Source: Alphaproteobacteria bacterium
GTDB taxonomy: Bacteria > Pseudomonadota > Alphaproteobacteria > Rs-D84
DNA length: 64,000 bases
Reading direction: 5' to 3'
Assembly (NCBI GenBank): GCA_009784235.1
Contig: WRCC01000003.1
Span: 72,984-136,983, forward strand
Each line of letters opens with the position of its first letter. Within the stretch, counting starts at the first letter, position 1. This document shows positions 6,944-47,305 of the stretch, piece by piece. The notes beneath the pieces were generated by a model that saw nothing but the letters and a program-made list of their open reading frames with translations, had not been told where the DNA came from and searched no databases. A program made the position numbers and the translations under genes.

Positions 6944-7167
6944 TAAAAAACTCTTTGTTTTCTGGGGCTTTTGGGGCACCCTGGTTGCTTTTTATCTACG
7001 CAAAGCCACGCCTGCGGTTTATTTTCTCCACACTTGTGGGAATTATAAACCGTTGATTTTCGCGGATTTCCGTGATTTCCCTTGCGCCAGCATCGCGCAA
7101 AGTCCAGACAGTATAAGGGCAAGCAATCCTATTGTCAAGAAAAAATGCGCATCTTCGGTGTTTTTGT

Positions 7168-7302
7168 CAGTGTAAAAGTGTAAGAGTGTAAAAAGTGTAA
7201 AAGTTTTTTTAAAACTCGTCGCGCAAAGCGCGACACATTCACTATTTGCACTAAGCAAAATTGCAAAGCAATTTTGCGATTACACTTTTATACTTTTACA
7301 CT
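7168..7302. repeat. ~135-bp intergenic repeat element (copy 1 of 2): GTGTAAAAG-type units at the left, a central GTCGCGCAAAGCGCGAC palindrome, and the inverted TTACACTTTT units at the right
   Basis: A second copy at 23233..23358 has the same architecture. Copy 1 also carries a perfect palindrome gcaaaattgc-aaa-gcaattttgc at 7254..7276. Confidence 0.75.
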
Positions 7303-7333
7303 AAAAAATCCCGGCAATTGCCGGGATTTTTTG
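7303..7333 (-). terminator. Rho-independent terminator for the OMP gene 7348..8085; it reads as a terminator in both directions
   Basis: aaaaaat-cccggcaattgccggg-attttttg. Confidence 0.75.
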
Positions 7334-7347
7334 TTTGTTGTTCTGTA

Positions 7348-20962: not shown

Positions 20963-22225
20963 TTAGAACCCAAAGGTTACACCGGCGCGCCATGCAACGT
21001 TGCGGTCTGCATACGAACCACCGACGTTCAGCAATGTGCCGTTGTTGACATAGTGGAATGCACCAACTGCGAATCCGACTTGGTCACGATAACCACCCGT
21101 GCCGAACGACAATTGAGTATCGCCGCTGGAACGTGCATTCGGAACCAATGCAGACATCGCGGACAATCCTGCGAATCCAGCGCGCATTTCTTTGGAAATG
21201 TCGTCAACACGTTTGTCCATGCCGTCGATACGCGCATTAACTTGGCCGAATTGCGATTCCGCCCATTCATAGCTGGCGTTCAATGCGCCGACCAAGTTTG
21301 TTTGGCCGTTCATTGGGCCGACCAATGCAGACATATCACCGATATCGTCCATAGTCGCGACGTTAACACCGTTGACCGTCGGGGTCAGCGTAAAGTTAAT
21401 CGCAGATTCTGGACCTGATGTTCCTGTTGCAAAGAAGCTCATATCACCGGTTGTATCATCCAGAACGAACGAATGTTCACCGATGTGGATTTTGTTGGTG
21501 TCTGGATGACGTTTGATAAGGCTGTTCAAGCTGTCAACATCGGTTTGGATATCGCCAACTTGCGCAACAATACCGTCATTTCCGTTCGGTCCCCACAACG
21601 CTTGGTTTGCTGTTTCCAACGATGCATTGGTCGCAACCAGTTCGCTGTTCAAACCGGCAACATCATTTGACAAGTTTGTCAGATTGGTGTTAGTGGTTTG
21701 CAATTCATTGTTTGTGTTAATCAGCTCGCTGTTCAAGCCAGCCAGACCGTTGTTCAAAGTATCGAATCCATCGACAACCGCCTGGTTCAGGTTGGCCAAA
21801 TCGGTACCTTGCTGATTAACTTGGGTTTGCAAACCAGCAATGTCCGAAGCATTGGTTGCGGTTTGCGCAACAATACCGTCATTTCCATTCGGACCCCACA
21901 AAGCTTGGTTTGCAGTTTCCAAGGAAGCATTTGTTGCAACCAATTCGCTGTTCAAGCCAGCAACGTCATTTGACAGGTTTGTCAAATTGGCATTTGTGAT
22001 TTGCAATTCGTTGTTGGTGTTAACCAATTCCGAATTCAATCCGGCCATTCCAGTATTGATGGTTGAAAAGCCATCGACAACTGCTTGGTTCAAATTGGCC
22101 AAATCGGTGGCAATGTCCGCATGCGCAGCATTAAATGCGAATACAGCGGTTGCCGCCAATATTGAGATTTTAAGTTTGTTCATTACTTTCTCCGTTATGT
22201 TAGAGGTTTTGTATAATTCTTCCAT
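20963..22225 (-). CDS. Trimeric autotransporter adhesin (YadA-like C-terminal membrane anchor) with coiled-coil passenger repeats
   Basis: The C-terminal ~90 aa (ALVGPMNGQTNLVGALNASYEW...GGSYADRNVAWRAGVTFGF) resemble a YadA anchor. A signal peptide is present. The passenger holds two tandem 102-aa repeats. Confidence 0.75.
   Translation of the reverse strand: MEELYKTSNITEKVMNKLKISILAATAVFAFNAAHADIATDLANLNQAVVDGFSTINTGMAGLNSELVNTNNELQITNANLTNLSNDVAGLNSELVATNASLETANQALWGPNGNDGIVAQTATNASDIAGLQTQVNQQGTDLANLNQAVVDGFDTLNNGLAGLNSELINTNNELQTTNTNLTNLSNDVAGLNSELVATNASLETANQALWGPNGNDGIVAQVGDIQTDVDSLNSLIKRHPDTNKIHIGEHSFVLDDTTGDMSFFATGTSGPESAINFTLTPTVNGVNVATMDDIGDMSALVGPMNGQTNLVGALNASYEWAESQFGQVNARIDGMDKRVDDISKEMRAGFAGLSAMSALVPNARSSGDTQLSFGTGGYRDQVGFAVGAFHYVNNGTLLNVGGSYADRNVAWRAGVTFGF
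21547..22105. repeat. Tandem direct repeat (306-bp unit, about 1.8 copies) inside the adhesin gene
   Basis: The protein segment DLANLNQAVVDGF...ALWGPNGNDGIVAQ occurs twice. The ORF-track fragments 21513.. and 21840.. are near-identical on the opposite strand. Confidence 0.8.
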
Positions 22226-23232: not shown

Positions 23233-23358
23233 CAGTGTAAAAGTGTAATCGAAAAATTACTGTGTAATTTTTCTAGTGTAACAGTGATTGTGTCGCGTAA
23301 AACGCGACGACTATAAATTTTACACTTTTTACACTCTTACGTTTTTACACTAAAAAAT
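23233..23358. repeat. ~125-bp intergenic repeat element (copy 2 of the GTGTAAAAG / GTCGCG-N-CGCGAC / TTACACTTTT family)
   Basis: cagtgtaaaagtgtaa ... gtcgcgtaaaacgcgac ... tttacactttttacactcttacgtttttacactaaaaaat. It has the same architecture as 7168..7302. Confidence 0.75.
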
Positions 23359-23388
23359 TAAACCCGCATTGCGGGTTTAATTTTTTTT
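23358..23388. terminator. Bidirectional rho-independent terminator
   Basis: aaaaaa-ttaaacccgcattgcgggtttaa-tttttttt. Confidence 0.8.
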
Positions 23389-23607
23389 CGGGTCTTCAAT
23401 ATTAGCAAGTGAATAAAGCACCGATGATATTAATGATTGATACGGAACGTGTTGGGCGTCGGCCAATTCTTTGATTTTTTCCAAAACCGGTTTCGGAATA
23501 CGCATATTGATAACTGAATCAGAACGATTAAATGCGCGATAAGCCGCATATTCTTTCAGCAATGAATCAATGTTCATAACGAACAACTGCTGCATTACAT
23601 TCGGCAT
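23377..23607 (-). CDS. RHH (CopG/BrnA-like) antitoxin-type protein with no recognisable partner toxin. The ATG is at 23607; the ORF track starts at a GTG at 23628.
   Basis: NMRIPKPVLEKIKELADAQHVPYQSLISSVLYSLA matches the BrnA/COG3514-type ribbon-helix-helix pattern (RLP..L..lK..A...GIPYQ.LI...L). Confidence 0.5.
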   Translation of the reverse strand: MPNVMQQLFVMNIDSLLKEYAAYRAFNRSDSVINMRIPKPVLEKIKELADAQHVPYQSLISSVLYSLANIEDPKKN

Positions 23608-23750
23608 CCTTGACTCCTTCTGCCACACTTGCCATCACAACCGCCAATACTGGCGTATTTACGAATGACTATATCAATGTATTTACAGATGTCAATACAT
23701 TTGTATAGCGGTCTGTATTGCCGGCTGTAATGGCGATTGTGTGGGCTTTT

Positions 23751-23804
23751 GTAGGGGCGCGTACTTGCGCCCTTTAATAATGGGGCGCAAGTACGCGCCC
23801 CTAC
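23751..23804. repeat. REP-like palindromic element, copy C (perfect 22-bp inverted repeat with a 9-nt loop)
   Basis: gtaggggcgcgtacttgcgccc-tttaataat-ggggcgcaagtacgcgcccctac. Confidence 0.85.
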
Positions 23805-23886
23805 AATTACAATTATTATTTGCATTTCCCCTGCCCCCGCGCTAAAATCGCGCCGAACGTTTATATATAAAAGGAAAGGAATTTTT

Positions 23887-25203
23887 ATGATAAAAAAACT
23901 ATTCGCAATATTTGCCTTATGCATTATGCCCTATGCCTTGTCAGCTGCATTAAAAGTCGACATCATCGCCGGCAATGTCGAACCGATTCCGATTGCAATC
24001 CAAAAATTCGAATCATCTGCTGCAAATGCCAAAGATGCTGAAACCATGCGCGGCATTGTTGAAAATAATTTGCGCACGTCCGGACTGTTCCGAATAATCA
24101 GCCGTGATGCACATCCGGAACACGCGCCATTTGATTCCGTGCCCAAATTCCAAAACTGGTCAATGATAAAGGCCCAGGCATTGGTCCAGGCGAAACTGGA
24201 AAACACGCCCGATGGCAATTATCGCCTGTCATTCTATTTATGGGATGTTAATGGCAAAGAACAAATCGAAGCACAAACATTGGTATCAACCAAAAAATCT
24301 ATGCGCCGATTGGCCCATATTATGTCCGATGCGATTTACGAACGCCTGACTGGCGAAGTCGGATACTTTGATACGCAAATTGTTTTCATCGCCGAATCCG
24401 GTCCAATGTCCGACCGAATAAAACGATTGGCCATTATGGACAGCGACGGCCACGGATTCCGATACATGTCCGATGGCAAATCAATGGTTATGTCGCCCCA
24501 CTTTTCGCCAAACATGCAAACAATCGTATTCTTGTCGTATCGCAATAATGAGCCAACCATTTGGTCACTGGACATGAACACTGGCGAACAGCGTCGATTG
24601 GGCATTTTCGGCGGAATGACTTTTTCGCCCCGGTTTTCGCCCGACGGGACCAAGGTCGCCCTGTCCCTGGTCAATAATGGTGATACCAATATATTCGAAT
24701 ACGACCTGATGGATAAAACAATGCGACAATTAACGTTCGGTAATGGAATTAATACTTCGCCGTCGTATTCGCCGGATGGAACAAAAATGGCGTTTAATTC
24801 AAATCGTTCGGGGTCCCAGCAATTACACGTCTTGGATATGCGGAATTTGTCGGTTGACCGATTGTCATACGGCGGTGGCCGATATGCGACGCCGGCTTTT
24901 TCACCCGATGGAAATTATATCGCATTCACAAAAATCGCCGATGATACGTTTTATATTGGAATAATGTCGCCGCGCGGAAAAAATGAAAAAATACTGGCAT
25001 CTGGCTGGTATATGGAAGGTCCGTCATGGGCACCCGGTTCACGCCGCATAGTATATTATGAAACATCCAGGGTCCCGGGCGATGACGAACAACGGGCCAG
25101 CCGGATAAGAACCGTTGATATCATCGGCATGAATGATTATGAAATCAAGCTGCCCGATGGCATACACGGCACAGAACCGACCTGGTCACCAAAATTGCCG
25201 TAA
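23887..25203 (+). CDS. tolB: Tol-Pal system beta-propeller protein TolB
   Basis: 438 aa with signal peptide, N-terminal TolB domain and repeated beta-propeller blades (FSPDGTK..., YSPDGTKMAF...). Confidence 0.9.
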   Translation: MIKKLFAIFALCIMPYALSAALKVDIIAGNVEPIPIAIQKFESSAANAKDAETMRGIVENNLRTSGLFRIISRDAHPEHAPFDSVPKFQNWSMIKAQALVQAKLENTPDGNYRLSFYLWDVNGKEQIEAQTLVSTKKSMRRLAHIMSDAIYERLTGEVGYFDTQIVFIAESGPMSDRIKRLAIMDSDGHGFRYMSDGKSMVMSPHFSPNMQTIVFLSYRNNEPTIWSLDMNTGEQRRLGIFGGMTFSPRFSPDGTKVALSLVNNGDTNIFEYDLMDKTMRQLTFGNGINTSPSYSPDGTKMAFNSNRSGSQQLHVLDMRNLSVDRLSYGGGRYATPAFSPDGNYIAFTKIADDTFYIGIMSPRGKNEKILASGWYMEGPSWAPGSRRIVYYETSRVPGDDEQRASRIRTVDIIGMNDYEIKLPDGIHGTEPTWSPKLP

Positions 25204-28993: not shown

Positions 28994-29200
28994 ATGAAAA
29001 AAATATCAATCACAATTTCCGGACACAGAACATCTCTGACACTTGAATCCGAATTCATTGATGCGCTACGTCAAATTGCCGCATCACAGAAAAAATCCAT
29101 TGCCGGATTGGTCCAAGAAATTGATGCAAATCGCGCCCGTACGACTAATCTTTCTTCGGCCGTCCGAATCTATATACTGCGATACTTAACAATAAAATAA
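28994..29200 (+). CDS. Ribbon-helix-helix (RHH_4-type) small DNA-binding protein
   Basis: KKISITISGHRTSLTLESEFIDALRQIAASQKKSIAGLVQEID fits the RHH_4 pattern (S.T..GH.TSL.LE..FW.AL..IA). Its ATG immediately follows the previous stop. The 3' end overlaps the convergent ybeY-lnt gene by ~56 bp. Confidence 0.55.
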   Translation: MKKISITISGHRTSLTLESEFIDALRQIAASQKKSIAGLVQEIDANRARTTNLSSAVRIYILRYLTIK

Positions 29201-31082
29201 TCGCCATCATCCAATTGCGGCCAATGATGCGATATGGCGTGATGCGCGATGCACCGACGGTGCCGTCCAACGTGCCCGCAACACCAATTGGCAAACTGGA
29301 TATGATTGTACCATCTGCGGCGACAAATGCGCTGATACCCGAATAATTCGCGCGAATAACGGGCACCCCAGATTCAATTGCATGCCGACGCGTCATATCC
29401 AAGTGCTGATACGGACCGGGCGTCCGACCAAACCAGGTATCGTTTGTAATATTTATAATCATATTCGGCCGGGCGCCACGCGGCACCAACGAATCTGAAA
29501 AAATAATTTCATAACAAATTGCCGGTGAAAATGTAAAATCATTTATATTGATAACTTCCGGTCCATCGCCCCGTGACATTTCGCCGGGTGTTGGAACCAG
29601 TCCGCCCAGCGGGCCATATTCGCCAAACGGAACCAAATGCGATTTATGATATATATGATTAATTGTACCGGTCGCGTCTGCGACAATCATGGAATTGTAA
29701 AACTGTGCATCGCGAATGTTTCGCGATTCTGGAACACGCACAGTATTAACGCCCGCAATAACAGTCGCATTCAATTCGCGCGCTGGTGCAAAATCAACCA
29801 AAACATTTCCATCCATATCAAACGGTATCAAAATCGGATACGCTGTTTCCGGCCAGATTATTATATCTGGATTTCCATCGCCCGTTCGACTCAATTCCAC
29901 CAACTGCCTAACAGCTTCGTCGACTGCCTCGCGATTGATTTTAAATGATTGGCCCGCCGCCGGTTGAATAATTCTGATGATTGGCGATTCAGGTGCTGGT
30001 AATTTATTAATTGCATGAATATTATAATGACCATATCCGATACCGATAATTAGCAATGGAACAAAAAGCGCAAACGACCATTTGTATTTTTTTGGATTCG
30101 TGCATGCTGCAATTAATCCAATAATTATAAACGTTAATCCCAATGCGCCCCACAGAGCCATGCTGTTTGATAGTGCCGGCCATGGCATTGTGATATTCGC
30201 AATCGGATTCCATGGAAACCCAGTCAAAAGCCATTCGCGCAACCATAAAACGAAAGTCCATGCCGCTGCGAATATAATCGGCCGGTACCAATTATTCACA
30301 CCCGTCCACTTGGTCAATAAAAACGGCAATGCAAAAACTATTCCACCAAACAACGCGATTCCAATAACGCCCGGCGCGGTCCAAATTGCAAACTGCGCCG
30401 CCAATTCCGGCACAACATATATAGAATTCAAAACCCACCAGAAATTTGCCACAGCGTACCCGGCGCCAAATGCAAAAGGCAATAAATATGATTTTTTCCG
30501 CGTGGAAATAATCGCATATGCACCACCGATTCCAATCAGCGTCGCCGGCCACAAATAAAACGGTGCGAACCCAAGTGATGCGATGACACCGCATAAAAAT
30601 GTCAATACTGGCAAATAATATTTACCACGAATTTCGGTTTTATACGGGTCCCCTATTCCCAATTTCTTTAAAATCTTTGATTCCAACGATTCCATTTTAT
30701 CTGCATCCGAATCATTTATATGGTCGTGCCCCAGCAAATGCAAAACACCGTGAACAACCATATGCGACGCATGCGCAATAAAATCATTTGGCAATTCACG
30801 CATAACTGTATCAAACGAAATAAATATATCGCCCAGCAATTCCGAATCGCCGGTTTCAAACGACAAGACATTTGTCGGCGCATCTTTCCCGCGATATTTT
30901 TTATTTAATTCTTGTATTTCAGAATCATTGGTCAATATAATGGAAACTTCCCCGTCGCCATTCGCGCCTGTGGCACGAATCGCGGTATCCACGATTTTAT
31001 CAAAATCGATTTTATGTTTTTCCCATCGCGGGTCGTTAATTGTGATGAAAACTTTTATGGACATGCTGAAATCATAAATCAT
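29145..31082 (-). CDS. ybeY-lnt: Single ORF encoding an N-terminal YbeY endoribonuclease domain fused in frame to apolipoprotein N-acyltransferase (Lnt)
   Basis: The first ~155 aa carry the YbeY zinc motif HGVLHLLGHDH and end ...LGIGDPYKTEIRGKY. Lnt TM1 follows with no stop codon (YLPVLTFLCGVIASLGFAPFYLW...). The C-terminus is the Lnt nitrilase-type domain (WPETAYP, ICYE, NDTWFG). Confidence 0.85.
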   Translation of the reverse strand: MIYDFSMSIKVFITINDPRWEKHKIDFDKIVDTAIRATGANGDGEVSIILTNDSEIQELNKKYRGKDAPTNVLSFETGDSELLGDIFISFDTVMRELPNDFIAHASHMVVHGVLHLLGHDHINDSDADKMESLESKILKKLGIGDPYKTEIRGKYYLPVLTFLCGVIASLGFAPFYLWPATLIGIGGAYAIISTRKKSYLLPFAFGAGYAVANFWWVLNSIYVVPELAAQFAIWTAPGVIGIALFGGIVFALPFLLTKWTGVNNWYRPIIFAAAWTFVLWLREWLLTGFPWNPIANITMPWPALSNSMALWGALGLTFIIIGLIAACTNPKKYKWSFALFVPLLIIGIGYGHYNIHAINKLPAPESPIIRIIQPAAGQSFKINREAVDEAVRQLVELSRTGDGNPDIIIWPETAYPILIPFDMDGNVLVDFAPARELNATVIAGVNTVRVPESRNIRDAQFYNSMIVADATGTINHIYHKSHLVPFGEYGPLGGLVPTPGEMSRGDGPEVININDFTFSPAICYEIIFSDSLVPRGARPNMIINITNDTWFGRTPGPYQHLDMTRRHAIESGVPVIRANYSGISAFVAADGTIISSLPIGVAGTLDGTVGASRITPYRIIGRNWMMAIILLLSIAVYRFGRPKKD

Positions 31083-31093
31083 AAATCATAAAT
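31073..31093. repeat. Heptanucleotide microsatellite (CATAAAT)x3, i.e. (ATTTATG)x3 on the coding strand, spanning the ybeY start codon and the ftsK-ybeY junction
   Basis: atcataaatcataaatcataaatcagc. Each unit contains an ATG on the minus strand. Confidence 0.8.
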
Positions 31094-31099
31094 CAGCAA

Positions 31100-33331
31100 T
31101 TATAAAATGTGACGCTTGTTATTCGCATCTGGGCCGCTGACAATCCCCTCTGCCTCCATTCGTTCGATAAAGGTTGCGGCTTTGTTATATCCGATGCCCA
31201 GGCGACGCTGGATGTATGAAATCGTCGGTTTGCGGTCGCGGGTTACATATTCAACTGCTTGACGATATGCATCGCCGTCTTTTTCGGATTTAGAACGCGG
31301 CATTCCTGGGATTGCTTCGTAAGCAGATGCATCGCCGCCGTATCCGGATGACGATTCTTCGGCGTCGCCGATGCCATCCACGTATTCTGGTTCCGCCTGG
31401 GCACGGATGAAATCCGCAACGCGTTTCATTTCCTTGCCTTCTATCCATGCGCTGTGAATGCGCACCGGTACGCGGCCAGCTTCACTGAACAGCATGTCGC
31501 CATTGGCCAATAATTGTTCCGCGCCCTTTTCGCCCAGCGTCGTCATGGAATCGATATTCGAACGCGCTTGGAATGAAATTCGCGTTGGAAAGTTGGCTTT
31601 GATAACACCGGTGATAACGGACGTGTCCGGACGCTGGGTCGCCATCGCCAGATGTATGCCGGCGGCGCGTGCTTTCTGTGCCAATCGCTGCACGCACGCT
31701 TCAACTTCTTTGCGTGCAACGGACATCAAATCGGCAACTTCGTCAATAATTACCACCAGATACGGCATGTGTTCGAATTCTATTTCTTGTGTTTCGAATT
31801 CCAGCGCGCCTGTCTCTGGGTCGGTTCCAACCGCGACTTGTTTTGTAATTTTTTTGCCCGATGCCGCAACTTCGTTAAAGCCTTCGATATTTTGTGCACC
31901 GGCATCTTTTAATTTTTTATACCGTTCTTCCATTTCACGCACACACCATTTCAAAGTATTGACCGCGGCATTCGCGTCCGTAACAACCGGCGTAATCAAA
32001 TGCGGAATGTCTTTCCAGATTGTAAAATCGACACCCTTTGGATCAACCATAATTAATTTGCACTCATCCGGACGGAAATGATACAGCACCGACATTATAA
32101 TAGATTGCACAAATACAGATTTACCAGAACCCGTGCGGCCGGCAATCAGTACGTGCGGCATTTTCGCCAAATCATAATACATCGGGTCGCCGGCAATATT
32201 TACGCCCAGTGCCAACGGTATGTTCAAGCGCGAATGGATAAAATCATCAGTATCGACAAGACCGCGGAACCGAACAATTTGTCGGCCGCCCAAATTCACC
32301 ATTTCAACGCCAATATAATTACTGCGCGGAATATGGGCAATGCGAATATTTTCAGTCGCCATCGCGCGCGTCATATCTTTGACTGTGTCCGCGATTTTTG
32401 CAATTCGCATTCCGGCATCCGGTTCGAATTTATATAATGTAACAATCGGTCCGGGTTCAATGCCCATGACTTTGCCATATACGCCATAATCTTGGAAATG
32501 TGTTTCCAGCATGGCGGCCGTACGTTTAAGGTCTGCGGTCACGGCATGCTTTGAAAACTTTGCTTGCTCTACCAATTCGGGTGATGGCAATTCATAATCA
32601 TCGTGGTTGGTGGTTTGTGCCGGTGGCTGGTGGCTGGTGATTTTTTTTGCGGGCACTTTTTTAACCGCGCACGTTTTCTTTTCTTTTTCTTCTTCATCTT
32701 CTTCGATTTCTTCTGTGTCATCTTCATCCGAAATTTTTTCAACTTTGATTAAATGCAGTACGGAACCAATCCAGCGTGCGGCTGAAATTATTCCGCGATA
32801 AACGGTCATAACATTCGCCCATTTTATATGCAGCAATATTCCAGACATCAATAAAAACATACCGATAAATAAAATGCCAAGCATCATCGCAATGGAACCG
32901 CCGACCAAGCCTGACAAATCACTATGAATAATTGTACCGACCAGGCCGCCGGATGACCATGCGGGAATTACCAGGCCAAGGCCCGCCGCACCAAATACAG
33001 TCGCAATAAACGCACGCATTGCGTCATATTCCGGTGTTTCATTTTCCCAATTTAATAAAATCACGGCACCCAGTCGGGTTATATAAAGCAGAACGAACAA
33101 CAATGGAATCCATCCAATACCATTAATTGCAAAAGATAAAATCACACCGATTAATGATTGTCGGCCGAAACTGCTGGCCACGCTGGCGCCATTCAGCCAG
33201 GGGTCAAATCGAAGCAACGCGATAATAAAAACAACACCGATTAAAATTATTCCCGCGCCAATAATACGCAAAGTCAAATTCTTTAACGCATTTGAAATTG
33301 ATTCGGGCAAAAATCGGGTTTGCTTTGGCAT
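31100..33331 (-). CDS. ftsK: DNA translocase FtsK
   Basis: 743 aa; N-terminal TM domain, an acidic linker, an FtsK/SpoIIIE motor (GRTGSGKSV) and a C-terminal gamma domain. Confidence 0.95.
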   Translation of the reverse strand: MPKQTRFLPESISNALKNLTLRIIGAGIILIGVVFIIALLRFDPWLNGASVASSFGRQSLIGVILSFAINGIGWIPLLFVLLYITRLGAVILLNWENETPEYDAMRAFIATVFGAAGLGLVIPAWSSGGLVGTIIHSDLSGLVGGSIAMMLGILFIGMFLLMSGILLHIKWANVMTVYRGIISAARWIGSVLHLIKVEKISDEDDTEEIEEDEEEKEKKTCAVKKVPAKKITSHQPPAQTTNHDDYELPSPELVEQAKFSKHAVTADLKRTAAMLETHFQDYGVYGKVMGIEPGPIVTLYKFEPDAGMRIAKIADTVKDMTRAMATENIRIAHIPRSNYIGVEMVNLGGRQIVRFRGLVDTDDFIHSRLNIPLALGVNIAGDPMYYDLAKMPHVLIAGRTGSGKSVFVQSIIMSVLYHFRPDECKLIMVDPKGVDFTIWKDIPHLITPVVTDANAAVNTLKWCVREMEERYKKLKDAGAQNIEGFNEVAASGKKITKQVAVGTDPETGALEFETQEIEFEHMPYLVVIIDEVADLMSVARKEVEACVQRLAQKARAAGIHLAMATQRPDTSVITGVIKANFPTRISFQARSNIDSMTTLGEKGAEQLLANGDMLFSEAGRVPVRIHSAWIEGKEMKRVADFIRAQAEPEYVDGIGDAEESSSGYGGDASAYEAIPGMPRSKSEKDGDAYRQAVEYVTRDRKPTISYIQRRLGIGYNKAATFIERMEAEGIVSGPDANNKRHIL

Positions 33332-40089: not shown

Positions 40090-40127
40090 AATCTAAATTC
40101 TACCCACTACATACTAACTACTACCTA

Positions 40128-41123
40128 CTATTCTGTTCTCAACTCTAATAACTTTGCCACGCCGCGCATAAAATCTGGCAATGGCGCCCGGACTGTCACG
40201 ACCTTGCCGGTTGATGGATGCTTGAACGATAACCGATGTGCAAATAAAAACAAGTTATTATTATCAATGAACGAACGAAGTGTTGCGGCGGCGGATTCAC
40301 AATCACTGGACCGGCACCGACCATATATGTCATCGCCGACAATCGGCGCGTTCAATGAAAATGCAGAATGCAGTCGTAATTGGTGCGTACGACCGGTCAC
40401 GGGCGAAAACCGCACCCAAGAAACCAAACCCGGCAAATGCGATACAACTTCGTATTTCGTAATCGCGCGATGTGCGCGAACACCGGATTCTTTTTTTAAT
40501 TCATCGGCTTCATCATCTGAAATAACCCGACCCTTGACCATAAAATTATCAATGATTCCGGACTTCGGCGATACATTTCCGGACAGTAATGCAAGGTATT
40601 CTTTCTTCGCATCGCGGCCCGAAAATTCTTCGGCCAACAATTGTGCCGCACGCTGATTTTTCGCCAATACAATAACACCGCTGGTGTCTCTGTCCAGACG
40701 GTGCACCAGCATGATTTTATCATGCGGAAACATGGCGGCCGCCATTTTATCCAGTGATTTTTGAATACCTGTTCCGCCCTGGGTTGCCAAGCCGGCCGGT
40801 TTATCAAACACGACAATATCTGCGTCATCATGGATTATCCGCGTGCGCAGGTTTTCCAAATCACGCATTGAAAATCGTTCGCCGGATTCCGTTCGTTTTG
40901 GTTTTTCGGATGCAATGCGCGATGTTGCGCCCGGTGGCACGCGAACCATATCGCCGGATTTTAATATTTCATCACCGCGGCAACGCCGGGAATTGATTCG
41001 GATTTGACCGCTGCGACACAGCTTGCGCAATTCGCCAATATTGACGGACGGATAATGCCGCCCAAACCAGCGGGCCAGCCGGATTCCGTCTTCGGTCATT
41101 GAAACTTTTATTGGTTCGGCCAT
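40128..41123 (-). CDS. RluA-family 23S rRNA pseudouridine synthase (RluC/D-like), with an S4 domain
   Basis: HRLDRDTSGVIVLAKN catalytic-Asp motif and an N-terminal S4-like domain. Confidence 0.85.
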   Translation of the reverse strand: MAEPIKVSMTEDGIRLARWFGRHYPSVNIGELRKLCRSGQIRINSRRCRGDEILKSGDMVRVPPGATSRIASEKPKRTESGERFSMRDLENLRTRIIHDDADIVVFDKPAGLATQGGTGIQKSLDKMAAAMFPHDKIMLVHRLDRDTSGVIVLAKNQRAAQLLAEEFSGRDAKKEYLALLSGNVSPKSGIIDNFMVKGRVISDDEADELKKESGVRAHRAITKYEVVSHLPGLVSWVRFSPVTGRTHQLRLHSAFSLNAPIVGDDIYGRCRSSDCESAAATLRSFIDNNNLFLFAHRLSFKHPSTGKVVTVRAPLPDFMRGVAKLLELRTE

Positions 41124-41687: not shown

Positions 41688-43436
41688 TTGCAATTCGAAC
41701 AACTGATTGAAAATATTCCCAATGTACCCGGCGTGTACCAGATGTTTGATTTGGACGGCAACCTGCTTTATGTTGGCAAAGCCAAAGATTTACGGAAACG
41801 CCTGACCCAATATACCAATATCGACCGATTGCCATATAATATGAAACAAATGCGGCGATTGGTTTCGAATATCGAAATAATCCAGACAAAAACCGAATCG
41901 GAAGCACTCATCCTGGAATCAGATTTAATAAAGAATAAAAAGCCGCGTTATAACATACTGCTGACCGATGATAAAATGTATCCGATGCTGGCATTGACGG
42001 CCGACGAATTTCCGCGGCTTTATAAATTCCGCGGGCGCGCGACCCAGAAAAAAGACGTCTTTGGTCCGTATTCATCCATATATTCATTAAACGATACGAT
42101 TAAATTAATTCAAAAGGTATGCAAAATTCGGACTTGTACCAATTCATATATGAATAATCGAAACCGTCCGTGTTTGCTGTATCAAATCGGCCGATGCAGC
42201 GCGCCATGCACCGTGCCGAACAACGATTATAAAAATTCTGTGGCATTGGCGCGGCGAATATTATCCGGCGATATTGCAACCGTTACCAAAGAACTATCCC
42301 TATTAATGGACGCTGCATCTGAAAAATTAGATTTCGAAGGAGCGGCCAAAATCCGGGACCAAATACGCGCATTGGCTGAAACCGCATCACGCGGTAAAAT
42401 GACCACCGCGTCCGCCGATTATTTTGCCGGCGATTTCACGACCGTACCCGTAATCGCAATCGCACAAATGCGCGCCGGGCAATATATATCGAATCAAACC
42501 ATATATCCAAAGCAAACTGATGGCATGTCACCGGCCGATATTATGGAACAGACGATATTGTGGTTCTATGGGAATCGGGAATCGGGAATCGGGAATCGTA
42601 TTCCAATTATTACCAATATTGAAACACCATTATTAAAATCGAATTTCGAATCTCGAATTTCGAATTTCGCAGATGACCCCGAAATCCAAAAATTATTAAA
42701 CCAGATTTCATTAAACCGGAAAACTTTTGGTGGTGCTAAAATCAACTGGACCGAATCGGTGGGTGCGCTGGAAGAATGGATGGGCATAAAAATTGACCGC
42801 GCGGATGTGTTTGATAATTCGCACTTGTTCGGCACGAACCCGGTCGGCGCAATGATTGTATTAAACAAAGACGGATTCCAGAAAAAAGAATACCGGCATT
42901 ACAAATTAAAAGATTCGGCAGTCGCCGGTAATGATATCGGAATGATGACGGAATTTATTTCGCGCCGATATAAAAATGCCGATGACAATAATCAATTATT
43001 AATCGTCGATGGCGGACGGGCGCAGTGGAATGCTGCGAAAAAAGTTTTGAAAAAACTGAATCTGGATATTCCGGTTTTGGGTATTACAAAAGGCGAAGTT
43101 CGCGATGGTGATGAACATTTTATAAAGCCGGACGGCAGTACGGACACATCTTTATCAAAAGATTCGCCACTTTTCCTGATGCTGCGCGCCGTGCGGGATG
43201 AAGCACATCGGTTCGCGATAACGCATCACAGGGCGGTGCGCGCCAAAACGAATGTTGCCAGCACGCTGGACGATATTCCAGGAATTGGCGCCGCACGACG
43301 ACGCGCTTTGCTGCGACATTTTGGGTCGGTCGCCAGAATCGCGGATGCATCCATTGATGCAATTGCAAAGGTACCCGGAATGTCGAAATTGATGGCAGAA
43401 AAAACCTATGGACACTTTCACCCTGAAAGTGCATAA
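41688..43436 (+). CDS. uvrC: Excinuclease ABC subunit C, with in-frame heptanucleotide repeat insertions
   Basis: GIY-YIG N-terminus (VPGVYQMFDLDGNLLYVGKAKDLRKRL), a UvrBC domain, a C-terminal RNase-H-like domain and HhH. Confidence 0.95.
   Translation: MQFEQLIENIPNVPGVYQMFDLDGNLLYVGKAKDLRKRLTQYTNIDRLPYNMKQMRRLVSNIEIIQTKTESEALILESDLIKNKKPRYNILLTDDKMYPMLALTADEFPRLYKFRGRATQKKDVFGPYSSIYSLNDTIKLIQKVCKIRTCTNSYMNNRNRPCLLYQIGRCSAPCTVPNNDYKNSVALARRILSGDIATVTKELSLLMDAASEKLDFEGAAKIRDQIRALAETASRGKMTTASADYFAGDFTTVPVIAIAQMRAGQYISNQTIYPKQTDGMSPADIMEQTILWFYGNRESGIGNRIPIITNIETPLLKSNFESRISNFADDPEIQKLLNQISLNRKTFGGAKINWTESVGALEEWMGIKIDRADVFDNSHLFGTNPVGAMIVLNKDGFQKKEYRHYKLKDSAVAGNDIGMMTEFISRRYKNADDNNQLLIVDGGRAQWNAAKKVLKKLNLDIPVLGITKGEVRDGDEHFIKPDGSTDTSLSKDSPLFLMLRAVRDEAHRFAITHHRAVRAKTNVASTLDDIPGIGAARRRALLRHFGSVARIADASIDAIAKVPGMSKLMAEKTYGHFHPESA
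42570..42597. repeat. (GGGAATC)x4 heptanucleotide tandem repeat inside uvrC
   Basis: gggaatcgggaatcgggaatcgggaatc encodes GNRESGIGNR. Confidence 0.9.
42641..42668. repeat. (GAATTTC)x4 heptanucleotide tandem repeat (one unit GAATCTC) inside uvrC
   Basis: gaatttcgaatctcgaatttcgaatttc encodes SNFESRISNF. Confidence 0.9.
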
Positions 43437-46688: not shown

Positions 46689-46719
46689 CTTCAAACCTAA
46701 AACTTCCTACTTCAAACTT
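46689..46719. repeat. Partial copy (one arm) of the CTTCAAAC / CCTACTTC palindromic-element family
   Basis: cttcaaacctaaaacttcctacttcaaactt lies at the dprA/plsY junction. Confidence 0.55.
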
Positions 46720-47305
46720 ATTTCTTCCACTTCCATTCAATCTTTGATTCTTTACCGTCGGCCAATCTTTGAATGTTTTCCCGGTGCTGCCACAGGCCCA
46801 ACAATGCCAACAATAGCATAACAACAAATCCATAAAATCCCATAAATAATCCAAATACAGGCAGCAAGCACAAAATAACAATCCCGGCCAGCGATGAATA
46901 TCCAAACGCGACAACCATGATTATCCAAATCAATCCGCTGATTACAAACAATATCGGATTAATGGCCATAAGAACGCCGAGCGTTGATGCAAATCCCTTG
47001 CCGCCACGGAACCCCAACCATACCGGAAAATTATGACCAACAACGGCGGCCGCACCCGCCAACATTCCAACAACCGGACCACCGACATAAAAGCCCAGCA
47101 ATACGGCAAAGATTGCTTTCAGCATATCAGATATAACAGTCAGCAACGCAACGGACAGTCCGCCATGCCGCATAACATTTGTTGCACCCGTGCTGCGCGA
47201 ACCTTTTTTACGAATATCGCCCAAGCCGAACATCTTGGCATAAATCACGCCAAATGGAATGGAACCCAACAAATAACCAATAATAATCATAATAAATGTG
47301 TTCAT
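46718..47305 (-). CDS. plsY: Glycerol-3-phosphate acyltransferase PlsY
   Basis: MNTFIMIIIGYLLGSIPFGV...; the ATG at 47305 has an AGGAGAGG ribosome-binding site. Confidence 0.9.
   Translation of the reverse strand: MNTFIMIIIGYLLGSIPFGVIYAKMFGLGDIRKKGSRSTGATNVMRHGGLSVALLTVISDMLKAIFAVLLGFYVGGPVVGMLAGAAAVVGHNFPVWLGFRGGKGFASTLGVLMAINPILFVISGLIWIIMVVAFGYSSLAGIVILCLLPVFGLFMGFYGFVVMLLLALLGLWQHRENIQRLADGKESKIEWKWKK

Follow-up and report, generated by a model that had tools for sequence, protein, structure and literature searches.

Heptanucleotide arrays in frame in uvrC as a probable local case of a class of inverted tandem repeats in an uncultured alphaproteobacterial clade

The uvrC gene in the 64-kb stretch of alphaproteobacterial DNA analyzed here (the window) carries two tandem arrays of 7-nt units. 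These tracts look like one local case of a lineage-specific class of 7-nt tandem arrays, which usually come as inverted, hairpin-capable pairs. The class is abundant in the genomes of an uncultured alphaproteobacterial clade, both between genes and in frame within housekeeping genes. Our preferred reading, to which we give a probability of roughly 0.6, is that the uvrC tracts are a tolerated by-product of lineage-specific heptamer slippage combined with inverted-repeat template switching; the evidence requires no function specific to uvrC. The initial annotation of this DNA had reported both tracts and proposed that they might form a contingency locus. To this our analysis adds that the tracts are mutually complementary when G·U pairs are counted and that they are members of a clade-wide class of inverted heptamers. 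The features of the locus are listed here by window coordinate.

41688-43436, + strand: uvrC, an intact open reading frame (ORF) of 582 aa, from the ORF list and Pfam
42570-42598, + strand: array 1, (GGGAATC)4.1; Tandem Repeats Finder, period 7, 100% matches
42599-42638, + strand: spacer, IPIITNIETPLLK, the 40 nt of native UvrC sequence between the arrays and the prospective hairpin loop
42639-42669, + strand: array 2, (TCGAATT)4.4, equivalent to (GAATTTC)4; Tandem Repeats Finder, period 7, 91% matches
42569-42673, + strand: predicted sense-strand RNA hairpin formed by the two arrays; RNA fold, -30.6 kcal/mol

The ORF was assigned to UvrC because its product matches the Pfam families GIY-YIG (residues 15-89), UVR (199-229), UvrC_RNaseH_dom (369-511) and HhH (526-571), which gives the UvrC domain order of GIY-YIG, UVR, RNase H-like endonuclease and (HhH)2. 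The C-terminal half of UvrC in the PDB (3c65) was matched at E = 2.7e-39, solved UvrC fragments cover both ends of the protein, and the catalytic-motif columns, which include D376 and D441, are invariant over 20 aligned UvrC sequences. A weak partial Pfam match to a second, RNase H-like family (UvrC_RNaseH) covers residues 255-299. An AlphaFold2 model was built from the 20-sequence alignment, with a mean predicted local distance difference test score (pLDDT) of 75.6, and in it residues 243-347 adopt a beta-beta-beta-alpha-beta-alpha-beta-alpha order, an RNase H-like topology. Judged by this model, both arrays sit in a degenerate, apparently poorly constrained RNase H-like middle domain. UvrC forms of ~474 aa that lack this whole domain (query residues ~241-345) make up the majority of the 120 listed homologues; the deletion is seen at alignment columns about 362-518, and its hosts are related gut Alphaproteobacteria. 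The absence of the middle domain from these shorter forms argues for weak constraint on it in this region of the phylogeny.

The two tracts meet the protein in different ways. Array 1 (GGGAATCGGGAATCGGGAATCGGG in full) encodes GNRESGIGNR at residues 296-305, which forms the loop between helix 282-295 and strand 307-309 in the model, with residues 297-302 at pLDDT < 50. Array 2 encodes SNFESRISNF at about residues 318-328 and covers the end of helix 314-320 plus strand 324-326, at pLDDT of about 75-80. The spacer residues, comprising beta-strand 307-309 and helix 314-320, are conserved throughout the long-form orthologues. Array 2 is length-neutral in the alignment, with the same residue count as VLGPRLSVREN, VFGSRFSARES, TNRFAILFRPN and the outgroup ALGAQISVRQ, and array 1 exceeds the shortest orthologue loops by only about 2-3 residues. 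The initial annotation had placed two heptamer tracts in frame in uvrC, 40 nt apart and upstream of the C-terminal RNase H-like and HhH domains, and had read both peptides as given above; Tandem Repeats Finder, the Pfam boundaries and the ORF translation bear this out. Its (GGGAATC)4 is a perfect tract, but in its (GAATTTC)4 one of the four units is GAATCTC. It had also described a peptide inserted into the linker, and of this the short extension of the array 1 loop stood, but array 2 inserts nothing and lies over a helix end and a strand. Protein-level selection for the repeat peptide was considered and rejected on the variation of the peptides among species and the low pLDDT of the array 1 loop. 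An assembly artefact was likewise rejected, the arrays being present in many independent assemblies (JGI, ENA, NCBI, Logan).

Slippage by 1 or 2 units in either tract leads to a stop at codons 306-341, which bears out the frameshift that had been predicted for the gain or loss of a single unit. The truncated product keeps GIY-YIG and UVR but ends before the C-terminal endonuclease and the HhH region. A change of 3 units (21 nt) in either tract keeps the frame. Stops close both other frames of the spacer, so a gain in one tract cannot be offset by a loss in the other, and the units of both arrays are stop-free in every frame on both strands.

To follow the site through the clade, the DNA of eleven orthologous uvrC genes was taken and the segment from ILWFY to DPEIQKL was cut out. 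A second assembly of the same organism (P0121, a near-identical record) encodes the identical repeat peptide. This record aside, the closest UvrC relatives are 60-68% identical and come from uncultured 'Alphaproteobacteria/Rickettsiales bacterium' metagenome-assembled genomes (MAGs), and protein-guided scans of genome and metagenome contigs returned relatives at 63-68% identity only. The isolate or contig labels of several relatives (Lab288P3, Emb289P1, Ga01233xx) presumably denote termite-gut metagenome bins. Period-7 arrays with different units occupy the same two uvrC sites in orthologues that are only about 67% identical, as in these two loci:

L004 uvrC, (GGAACCR)5 with (GTTCCTG)4: GGAACCG GGAACCA GGAATCA GGAACCA GGAAT / ATTCCTG GTTCCCG GTTCCTG GTTCCTG
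L017 uvrC, (GRRRGCC)4 with (CGGYTYY)4: GAAAGCC GGGGGCC GAGGGCC GAAAGCC / CGGTTTT CGGTTCC CGATTTT CGGCCCG

Loci L008, L001, L006 and L009 carry arrays that are alike at the same sites but more degenerate, and the L019 uvrC holds period-7 arrays of unrelated units. The orthologue peptides GNQESGTRNK, GNQEPETK and SNLESGTKN are recognisably related to the GNRESG of the window. The initial annotation had named conservation of the same peptide insertion in distant relatives as an observation that would speak against its proposal; the orthologues carry related peptides at both sites, written in differing units, which in part speaks against it. Other UvrC loops also contain in-frame arrays, namely (CCTCTTA)5 in L002, (CACRAAT)3-4 in L003 and (GCAGAGT)5 in L016, and the L016 gene has in addition an intragenic inverted heptamer pair able to form a hairpin (2389-2484). 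uvrC is a full ORF in 19 of 19 aligned relatives and in L002 and L015, several of these genes carrying in-frame heptamer arrays.

These observations bear on the contingency locus, in which slippage would toggle UvrC between the full-length protein and a truncated one without 5'-incision and HhH functions, giving a reversible loss of nucleotide-excision repair (NER). The unit length, which is not a multiple of 3, and the truncation at codons 306-341 are as such a switch would need, and the perfection of array 1 implies recent slippage or homogenization. Frameshifting heptanucleotide tracts in coding sequence are known in H. influenzae (PMC2651432), where published tracts have 6-38 units as opposed to 4.1 and 4.4 here, although the literature threshold is not absolute. 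The uvrC tracts lie in the middle of a housekeeping repair gene, arrays at these two positions have stayed in frame in species that differ by about 33%, and no OFF allele was found among the 19 aligned relatives, L002 and L015. Similar arrays in rluC, dnaA and other uvrC loops show that the tracts are not specific to a gene that would profit from switching, and the P0121 assembly, with its identical peptide, points the same way. Loss of NER, moreover, is not known to be a strong general mutator. We therefore consider a contingency locus very improbable, and this part of the initial annotation was not sustained.

A neighbour-joining tree was computed from the gap-free columns of UvrC, a single protein, without bootstrapping. 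In it the window UvrC is sister to P0007/L016, and the array-free P0007, P0008 and P0011 fall in three different subclades. These three share the loop SENPPxxK, encoded by TCGGAAAACCCG (TCG GAA AAC CCG), which contains GAAAACC. The units GAAAACC, GGAACCA, GGAAACC, GGGAATC and GAAAGCC look like derivatives of a GAAAACC-like proto-unit, and at face value the arrays would have expanded several times from the same seed. Array 1 itself underwent recent homogenization, as the perfect identity of its units shows. The recent expansion of a simple sequence repeat (SSR), offered as the other possibility in the initial annotation, is thus borne out for the perfect array 1 but does not cover the history of the site, which has been array-prone since before these species split.

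Two further insertions were noted in the UvrC of relatives. Loop 2 of the L016 gene (P0007), at about 1940-2075, holds a ~135-nt nested palindrome bounded by TGTCATCCCG and CGGGATGACA, and the L019 protein (P0012) has a ~50-aa insertion containing PVVPAFAGMT around alignment columns 226-298. The palindromic in-frame insertions in L016 and L019 suggest that other hairpin elements also invade UvrC loops.

Further 7-bp repeats, which the initial annotation had thought worth looking for, are plentiful. When four units with ≥80% self-identity were required, the window gave 5 period-7 arrays compared with 0.05 in order-3 Markov shuffles, and the same scan found no arrays of periods 6 and 8-12, period 7 alone being enriched. 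Four strict period-7 arrays of at least 3 copies were present in the window and none in 20 dinucleotide shuffles, and a looser scan (≥75% identity) returned 9 period-7 arrays in the 64 kb. With that looser scan the relatives gave 0 to 21 period-7 arrays per 10 kb (21.3 in L013, 13.9 in L016, 7.4 in L019 and 5.1 in L017), with other periods almost nil. No period-7 array was found in two outgroup loci (21 kb each, 43 kb together), L021 with a UvrC of 53% identity and L022 with a UvrC of the 474-aa group. The sample consisted of 64 kb from this genome and 3-22 kb from each relative.

Arrays of this class pair, as a rule, in inverted orientation. The count covered 52 arrays from some 165 kb of non-redundant clade sequence; for at least 19 of them an inverted partner lies within 200 nt, and for only 2 a direct one. 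A partner was defined as a reverse-complement unit within one mismatch; two random units match in this way by chance in about 1% of cases, and the test, being crude, missed some obvious pairs. Examples of inverted pairs are the following.

Window, 2642-2676/2683-2718
L016, 237-285/357-407
L017, 907-950/976-1041
L019, 4368-4450 and 6991-7061

Roughly half of the arrays fall within ORFs (uvrC, rluC, dnaA), all of them in frame, and the other half in the ~10% of sequence that is intergenic, on an ORF map that is heuristic for some loci and over-extends some starts. Units recur across loci within a genome, such as GAAATTT and GCAGAGT in L016 and GGTCGTT in L017. The arm 2 unit of the window, AATTTCG, is one base from AATTTCA, the commonest unit of the closest sampled relative, L016. 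The units differ among the loci of the window, and in the 64 kb sampled from this genome no conserved multi-copy element sequence was found. GGGAATC occurs in the 64 kb in 8 copies on the + strand, 4 of them in array 1, and in 1 copy on the - strand.

The two uvrC arrays of the window match in this way only as RNA and with G·U pairs. The arms pair at 6 of 7 positions per unit, two of these being G·U. The arm-arm RNA duplex reaches -26.1 kcal/mol, which none of 1000 shuffles of arm 2 equaled, and it is better than synonymous recoding at p = 0.001. Because the pairing needs G·U, the arms pair only as sense-strand RNA; for the window region, array pairing was absent from the minus-strand RNA fold and from the fold with DNA parameters. 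Compared with the exact complement CGATTCC, arm 2 (CGAATTT/CGAATCT) shows in each unit two C-to-T changes and one transversion. A partly decayed window pair would be consistent with this pattern, the G·U-only match then reflecting C-to-T change in arm 2.

Across species, arm duplexes were more stable than those of shuffled and of synonymously recoded arms for the window (p ≤ 0.001) and for L001, L004, L008 and L017, and no significant arm pairing was found in 7 of the 12 orthologues (L003, L006, L009, L016, L018, L019 and L020). The arms were delimited by peptide landmarks, a choice on which the complementarity statistics depend. Arms from the same species fit each other better than arms from different species (permutation test; plus strand, p = 0.003; minus strand, p = 0.001). 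The L004 arrays form a 23-nt perfect inverted repeat, and the region folds at -66.8 kcal/mol (z = -6.2), a value matched by 0 of 200 shuffles. RNAalifold on five orthologues gave a weak consensus of -4.5 kcal/mol with a positive covariation term and 5 consensus pairs with double changes. Since the arrays align in shifting registers, alignment covariation is ill-suited to them and per-species duplex tests were used instead.

We then considered whether the pairing has been selected in the mRNA, as a sense-strand hairpin or a (GGGAAUC)4 G-quadruplex that tunes the translation of uvrC, its co-translational folding or its decay. Selection on structure would explain the repeated occurrence of complementary arrays at this pair of sites, and the sense-strand, G·U-dependent pairing in the window, the advantage over synonymous recoding in 5 species, the very stable L004 hairpin and the 5 doubly changed consensus pairs are all in its favor. 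Array 1 fits the G-quadruplex motif G3N4G3N4G3N4G3 on the sense strand and is identical to a sequence that folds into a G-quadruplex in vitro (PMC4692102). The orthologue units, however, have only GG runs, so the quadruplex is not the conserved feature. Pairing was not significant in more than half of the orthologues, the RNAalifold consensus is weak and its covariation term positive, and the whole region of the window folds no better than its shuffles. An Rfam scan of the 64-kb window at the gathering threshold returned no RNA family, nor any tRNA. AT-biased C-to-T mutation pressure would equally produce G·U-only decay, and the presence of inverted arrays throughout these genomes makes a uvrC-specific function unnecessary. 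On balance a selected mRNA element is unlikely. Also rather unlikely is a broader proposal in which the clade has an active, undescribed process that writes inverted heptamer hairpins, with the uvrC pair serving as a selected hairpin or G-quadruplex, or as a low-frequency frameshift switch, that tunes NER.

For the tolerated by-product that we favor, the following course of events can be proposed. A GAAAACC-like 7-nt proto-unit in the loop would expand by slipped-strand mispairing in the preferred 7-nt step. Intrastrand template switching within a short quasi-palindrome would then copy one arm onto the other, and in this way the partner arm would become a complementary array without net insertion. 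Selection on UvrC would retain only variants that are in frame and stop-free. Array 1 would thereby have lengthened a disordered loop, and array 2 would have overwritten a helix end and a strand at constant length. Many bacteria favor slippage in steps of 7 nt. Heptamers are described as the most abundant class of long SSRs, for which Mrazek and colleagues offered an explanation from polymerase slippage or contact, as summarized in PMC4679880 and PMC4692102. Template switching is reported to homogenize and extend the arms of inverted repeats, also in coding DNA, and to create RNA hairpins (PMC8604942, PMC13100816, PMC8794818, PMC7202029). It is a mechanism and not a repeat family, and it would explain both the complementary partner array of unchanged length and the co-evolution of arms within a species. 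In the literature searched we found no description of template switching combined with tandem heptamer arrays.

Several points weigh against this reading. Counting Watson-Crick pairs only, the window arms show no significant complementarity (p about 0.2-0.6). The region as a whole does not fold better than its dinucleotide shuffles (z = -0.23 on the + strand and -0.09 on the - strand), although shuffles of such low-complexity sequence fold about equally well and these z-scores are hence uninformative. In view of both results the window pairing could be residual or accidental. Recurrence at the two sites in five species, together with the G·U-only decay on the sense strand, may reflect selection on mRNA structure. 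We infer slippage and template switching at this locus, as we do the lack of a dedicated function, and the scheme above does not itself account for the 7-nt step in this clade. The several independent expansions rest on the unbootstrapped single-protein tree, and there may instead have been one ancient array with losses.

The absence of significant Watson-Crick complementarity, and the existence of lone heptamer arrays in the window, could also mean that the tracts are two unrelated neighbouring microsatellites whose complementarity and likeness to those of relatives are coincidental. With ~0.05 arrays expected per 64 kb, two within 70 nt are very unlikely unless linked. The orthologous pair in L004 is a perfect inverted repeat over 23 nt, and inverted pairing prevails in this array class. 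Coincidence is in our estimate quite improbable.

Among known systems, the closest match to the uvrC tracts is the (GGGAATC)n repeat of Xanthomonas, which shares the unit of array 1 and the four-unit length; its nearby inverted array pairs have clear counterparts in L004 and in at least 19 of the 52 clade arrays. In Xanthomonas the modal number of units is four, and each genome contains 70-75 array pairs in convergent, inverted orientation (Rehm et al. 2015, PMC4692102). The arrays are intragenic in 7-11% of cases, as opposed to about a third in Nostoc, and turn over in length and sequence between related species (PMC4692102). A (GGGAATC)3GGG DNA oligonucleotide folds into a G-quadruplex in vitro according to circular dichroism data (PMC4692102), and by the identity of the motif array 1 is a candidate G-quadruplex. 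The motif of four G3 tracts is found in array 1 only, not in array 2 or the orthologue arrays. The systems differ in other respects as well. The Xanthomonas repeats are gammaproteobacterial with one dominant heptamer, whereas the alphaproteobacterial clade has diverse units; the partner arm in the window is GAATTTC and not GATTCCC; and here the pair straddles a conserved housekeeping coding segment and has counterparts at the same positions in several other species.

Over-representation of period 7 is likewise reported for long SSRs of prokaryotes (Mrazek et al. 2007), for cyanobacterial STRR sequences and for the TAACTGA repeats of Beggiatoaceae. The long SSRs are mostly intergenic per base, as in this clade, and an origin by polymerase slippage is proposed (PMC4679880, PMC4692102). 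Coding repeats in those surveys favor multiples of 3, whereas about half of the arrays sampled here lie in ORFs and keep the frame. The TAACTGA arrays have one sequence, are for the most part direct repeats and are located ahead of start codons, unlike the window arrays. The hmw1A/hmw2A and TonB-dependent receptor tracts of H. influenzae share with uvrC a 7-nt unit and frameshifting when inside an ORF; they run to 6-38 units, belong to surface or uptake genes or their promoters and vary among strains (PMC2651432), in contrast to the 4 units in a repair gene. The literature searched contained no description of heptamer arrays in this clade.

Palindromic DNA in coding sequence also has a precedent within the Alphaproteobacteria. 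Rickettsia palindromic elements, reported by Ogata and colleagues in 2000, are reportedly selfish palindromic DNA in frame in protein-coding genes. They resemble the uvrC arrays in that hairpin-capable DNA is tolerated in frame at permissive protein sites, and differ in being contiguous over ~100-150 bp and forming a conserved family; the uvrC arms are locus-specific and flank native sequence. An in-frame insertion of a mobile element of this kind would fit the palindromic arms in frame in an alphaproteobacterial housekeeping gene, the contiguous palindromic insertions in the uvrC of a relative (L016, loop 2 and 2389-2484) and the recurrence of units at several loci within L016 and L017. The segment between the arms is, however, native conserved UvrC, and the arrays add about 2-3 residues at most; units differ among window loci, and the 64 kb sampled yielded no conserved multi-copy sequence. 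We regard a mobile palindromic element as very unlikely, and the specific candidate of a contiguous insertion at uvrC was rejected on the native spacer of the orthologues and the absence of added residues at array 2.

A phase-variable repair gene would have been notable, but the evidence points elsewhere. It describes a lineage that tolerates many 7-nt tandem arrays, mostly hairpin-capable inverted pairs, in essential genes and between genes, and in which the same permissive UvrC loops were struck repeatedly. The clade is a natural system for asking why heptamers are the preferred bacterial slippage step, how inverted arrays originate, perhaps by template switching, and how non-triplet repeat DNA turns into protein without breaking genes. 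In practical terms, heptamer tracts likely cause errors of assembly and gene calling in these MAGs.

uvrC is found with an AsmA-like gene, an RluC-type pseudouridine synthase gene, a small pilin-like ORF, pgsA and dnaA as neighbours, a gene order that is kept in relatives. Other heptamer arrays in the window are these:

2642-2718: inverted pair (GTTTGAA)n/(TTCAAAC)n, intergenic, between 103-aa and 395-aa ORFs (- strand); Tandem Repeats Finder
31062-31106: lone array (AAATCAT)4 at a gene boundary, overlapping the annotated start of ORF 29145-31082 (- strand)
40100-40130: degenerate array (CTACCTA)4.4, intergenic, between the AsmA-like and the RluC-like gene (38-nt spacer)
32603-32639: degenerate in-frame array in the low-complexity linker of the 743-aa ORF 31100-33331 (- strand)
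23910-23941: degenerate in-frame array in the signal-peptide-like N-terminus of ORF 23887-25203 (+ strand)

We assume from their size that the 103-aa and 395-aa ORFs could be S10 and EF-Tu. The unit CTTCAAA of the pair between them was seen again at 46689-46733 in the window and at 165-199 in L013. Each minus-strand unit of (AAATCAT)4 holds an ATG, and the number of units could affect the choice of start site. In L017 an inverted heptamer pair is present in the syntenic AsmA-like/RluC-like spacer.

Three other repeat features were observed in the window. A dispersed element with at least 2 copies in opposite orientation (7150-7345 and 23255-23395) consists of inverted octamer arrays, (AGTGTAAA)4 and (TTACACTT)3, on either side of small GC hairpins, for example GTCGCGCAAAGCGCGAC; a terminator-like hairpin and a T run come after each copy. 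This element is an 8-nt counterpart of the heptamer pairs. A long, nearly perfect intergenic palindrome, TGTAGGGGCGCGTACTTGCGCCC ... GGGCGCAAGTACGCGCCCCTACA, lies at 23740-23810. Finally, a 303-nt tandem repeat of 1.8 copies with 81% identity spans 21560-22108, within ORF 20963-22225 (- strand).

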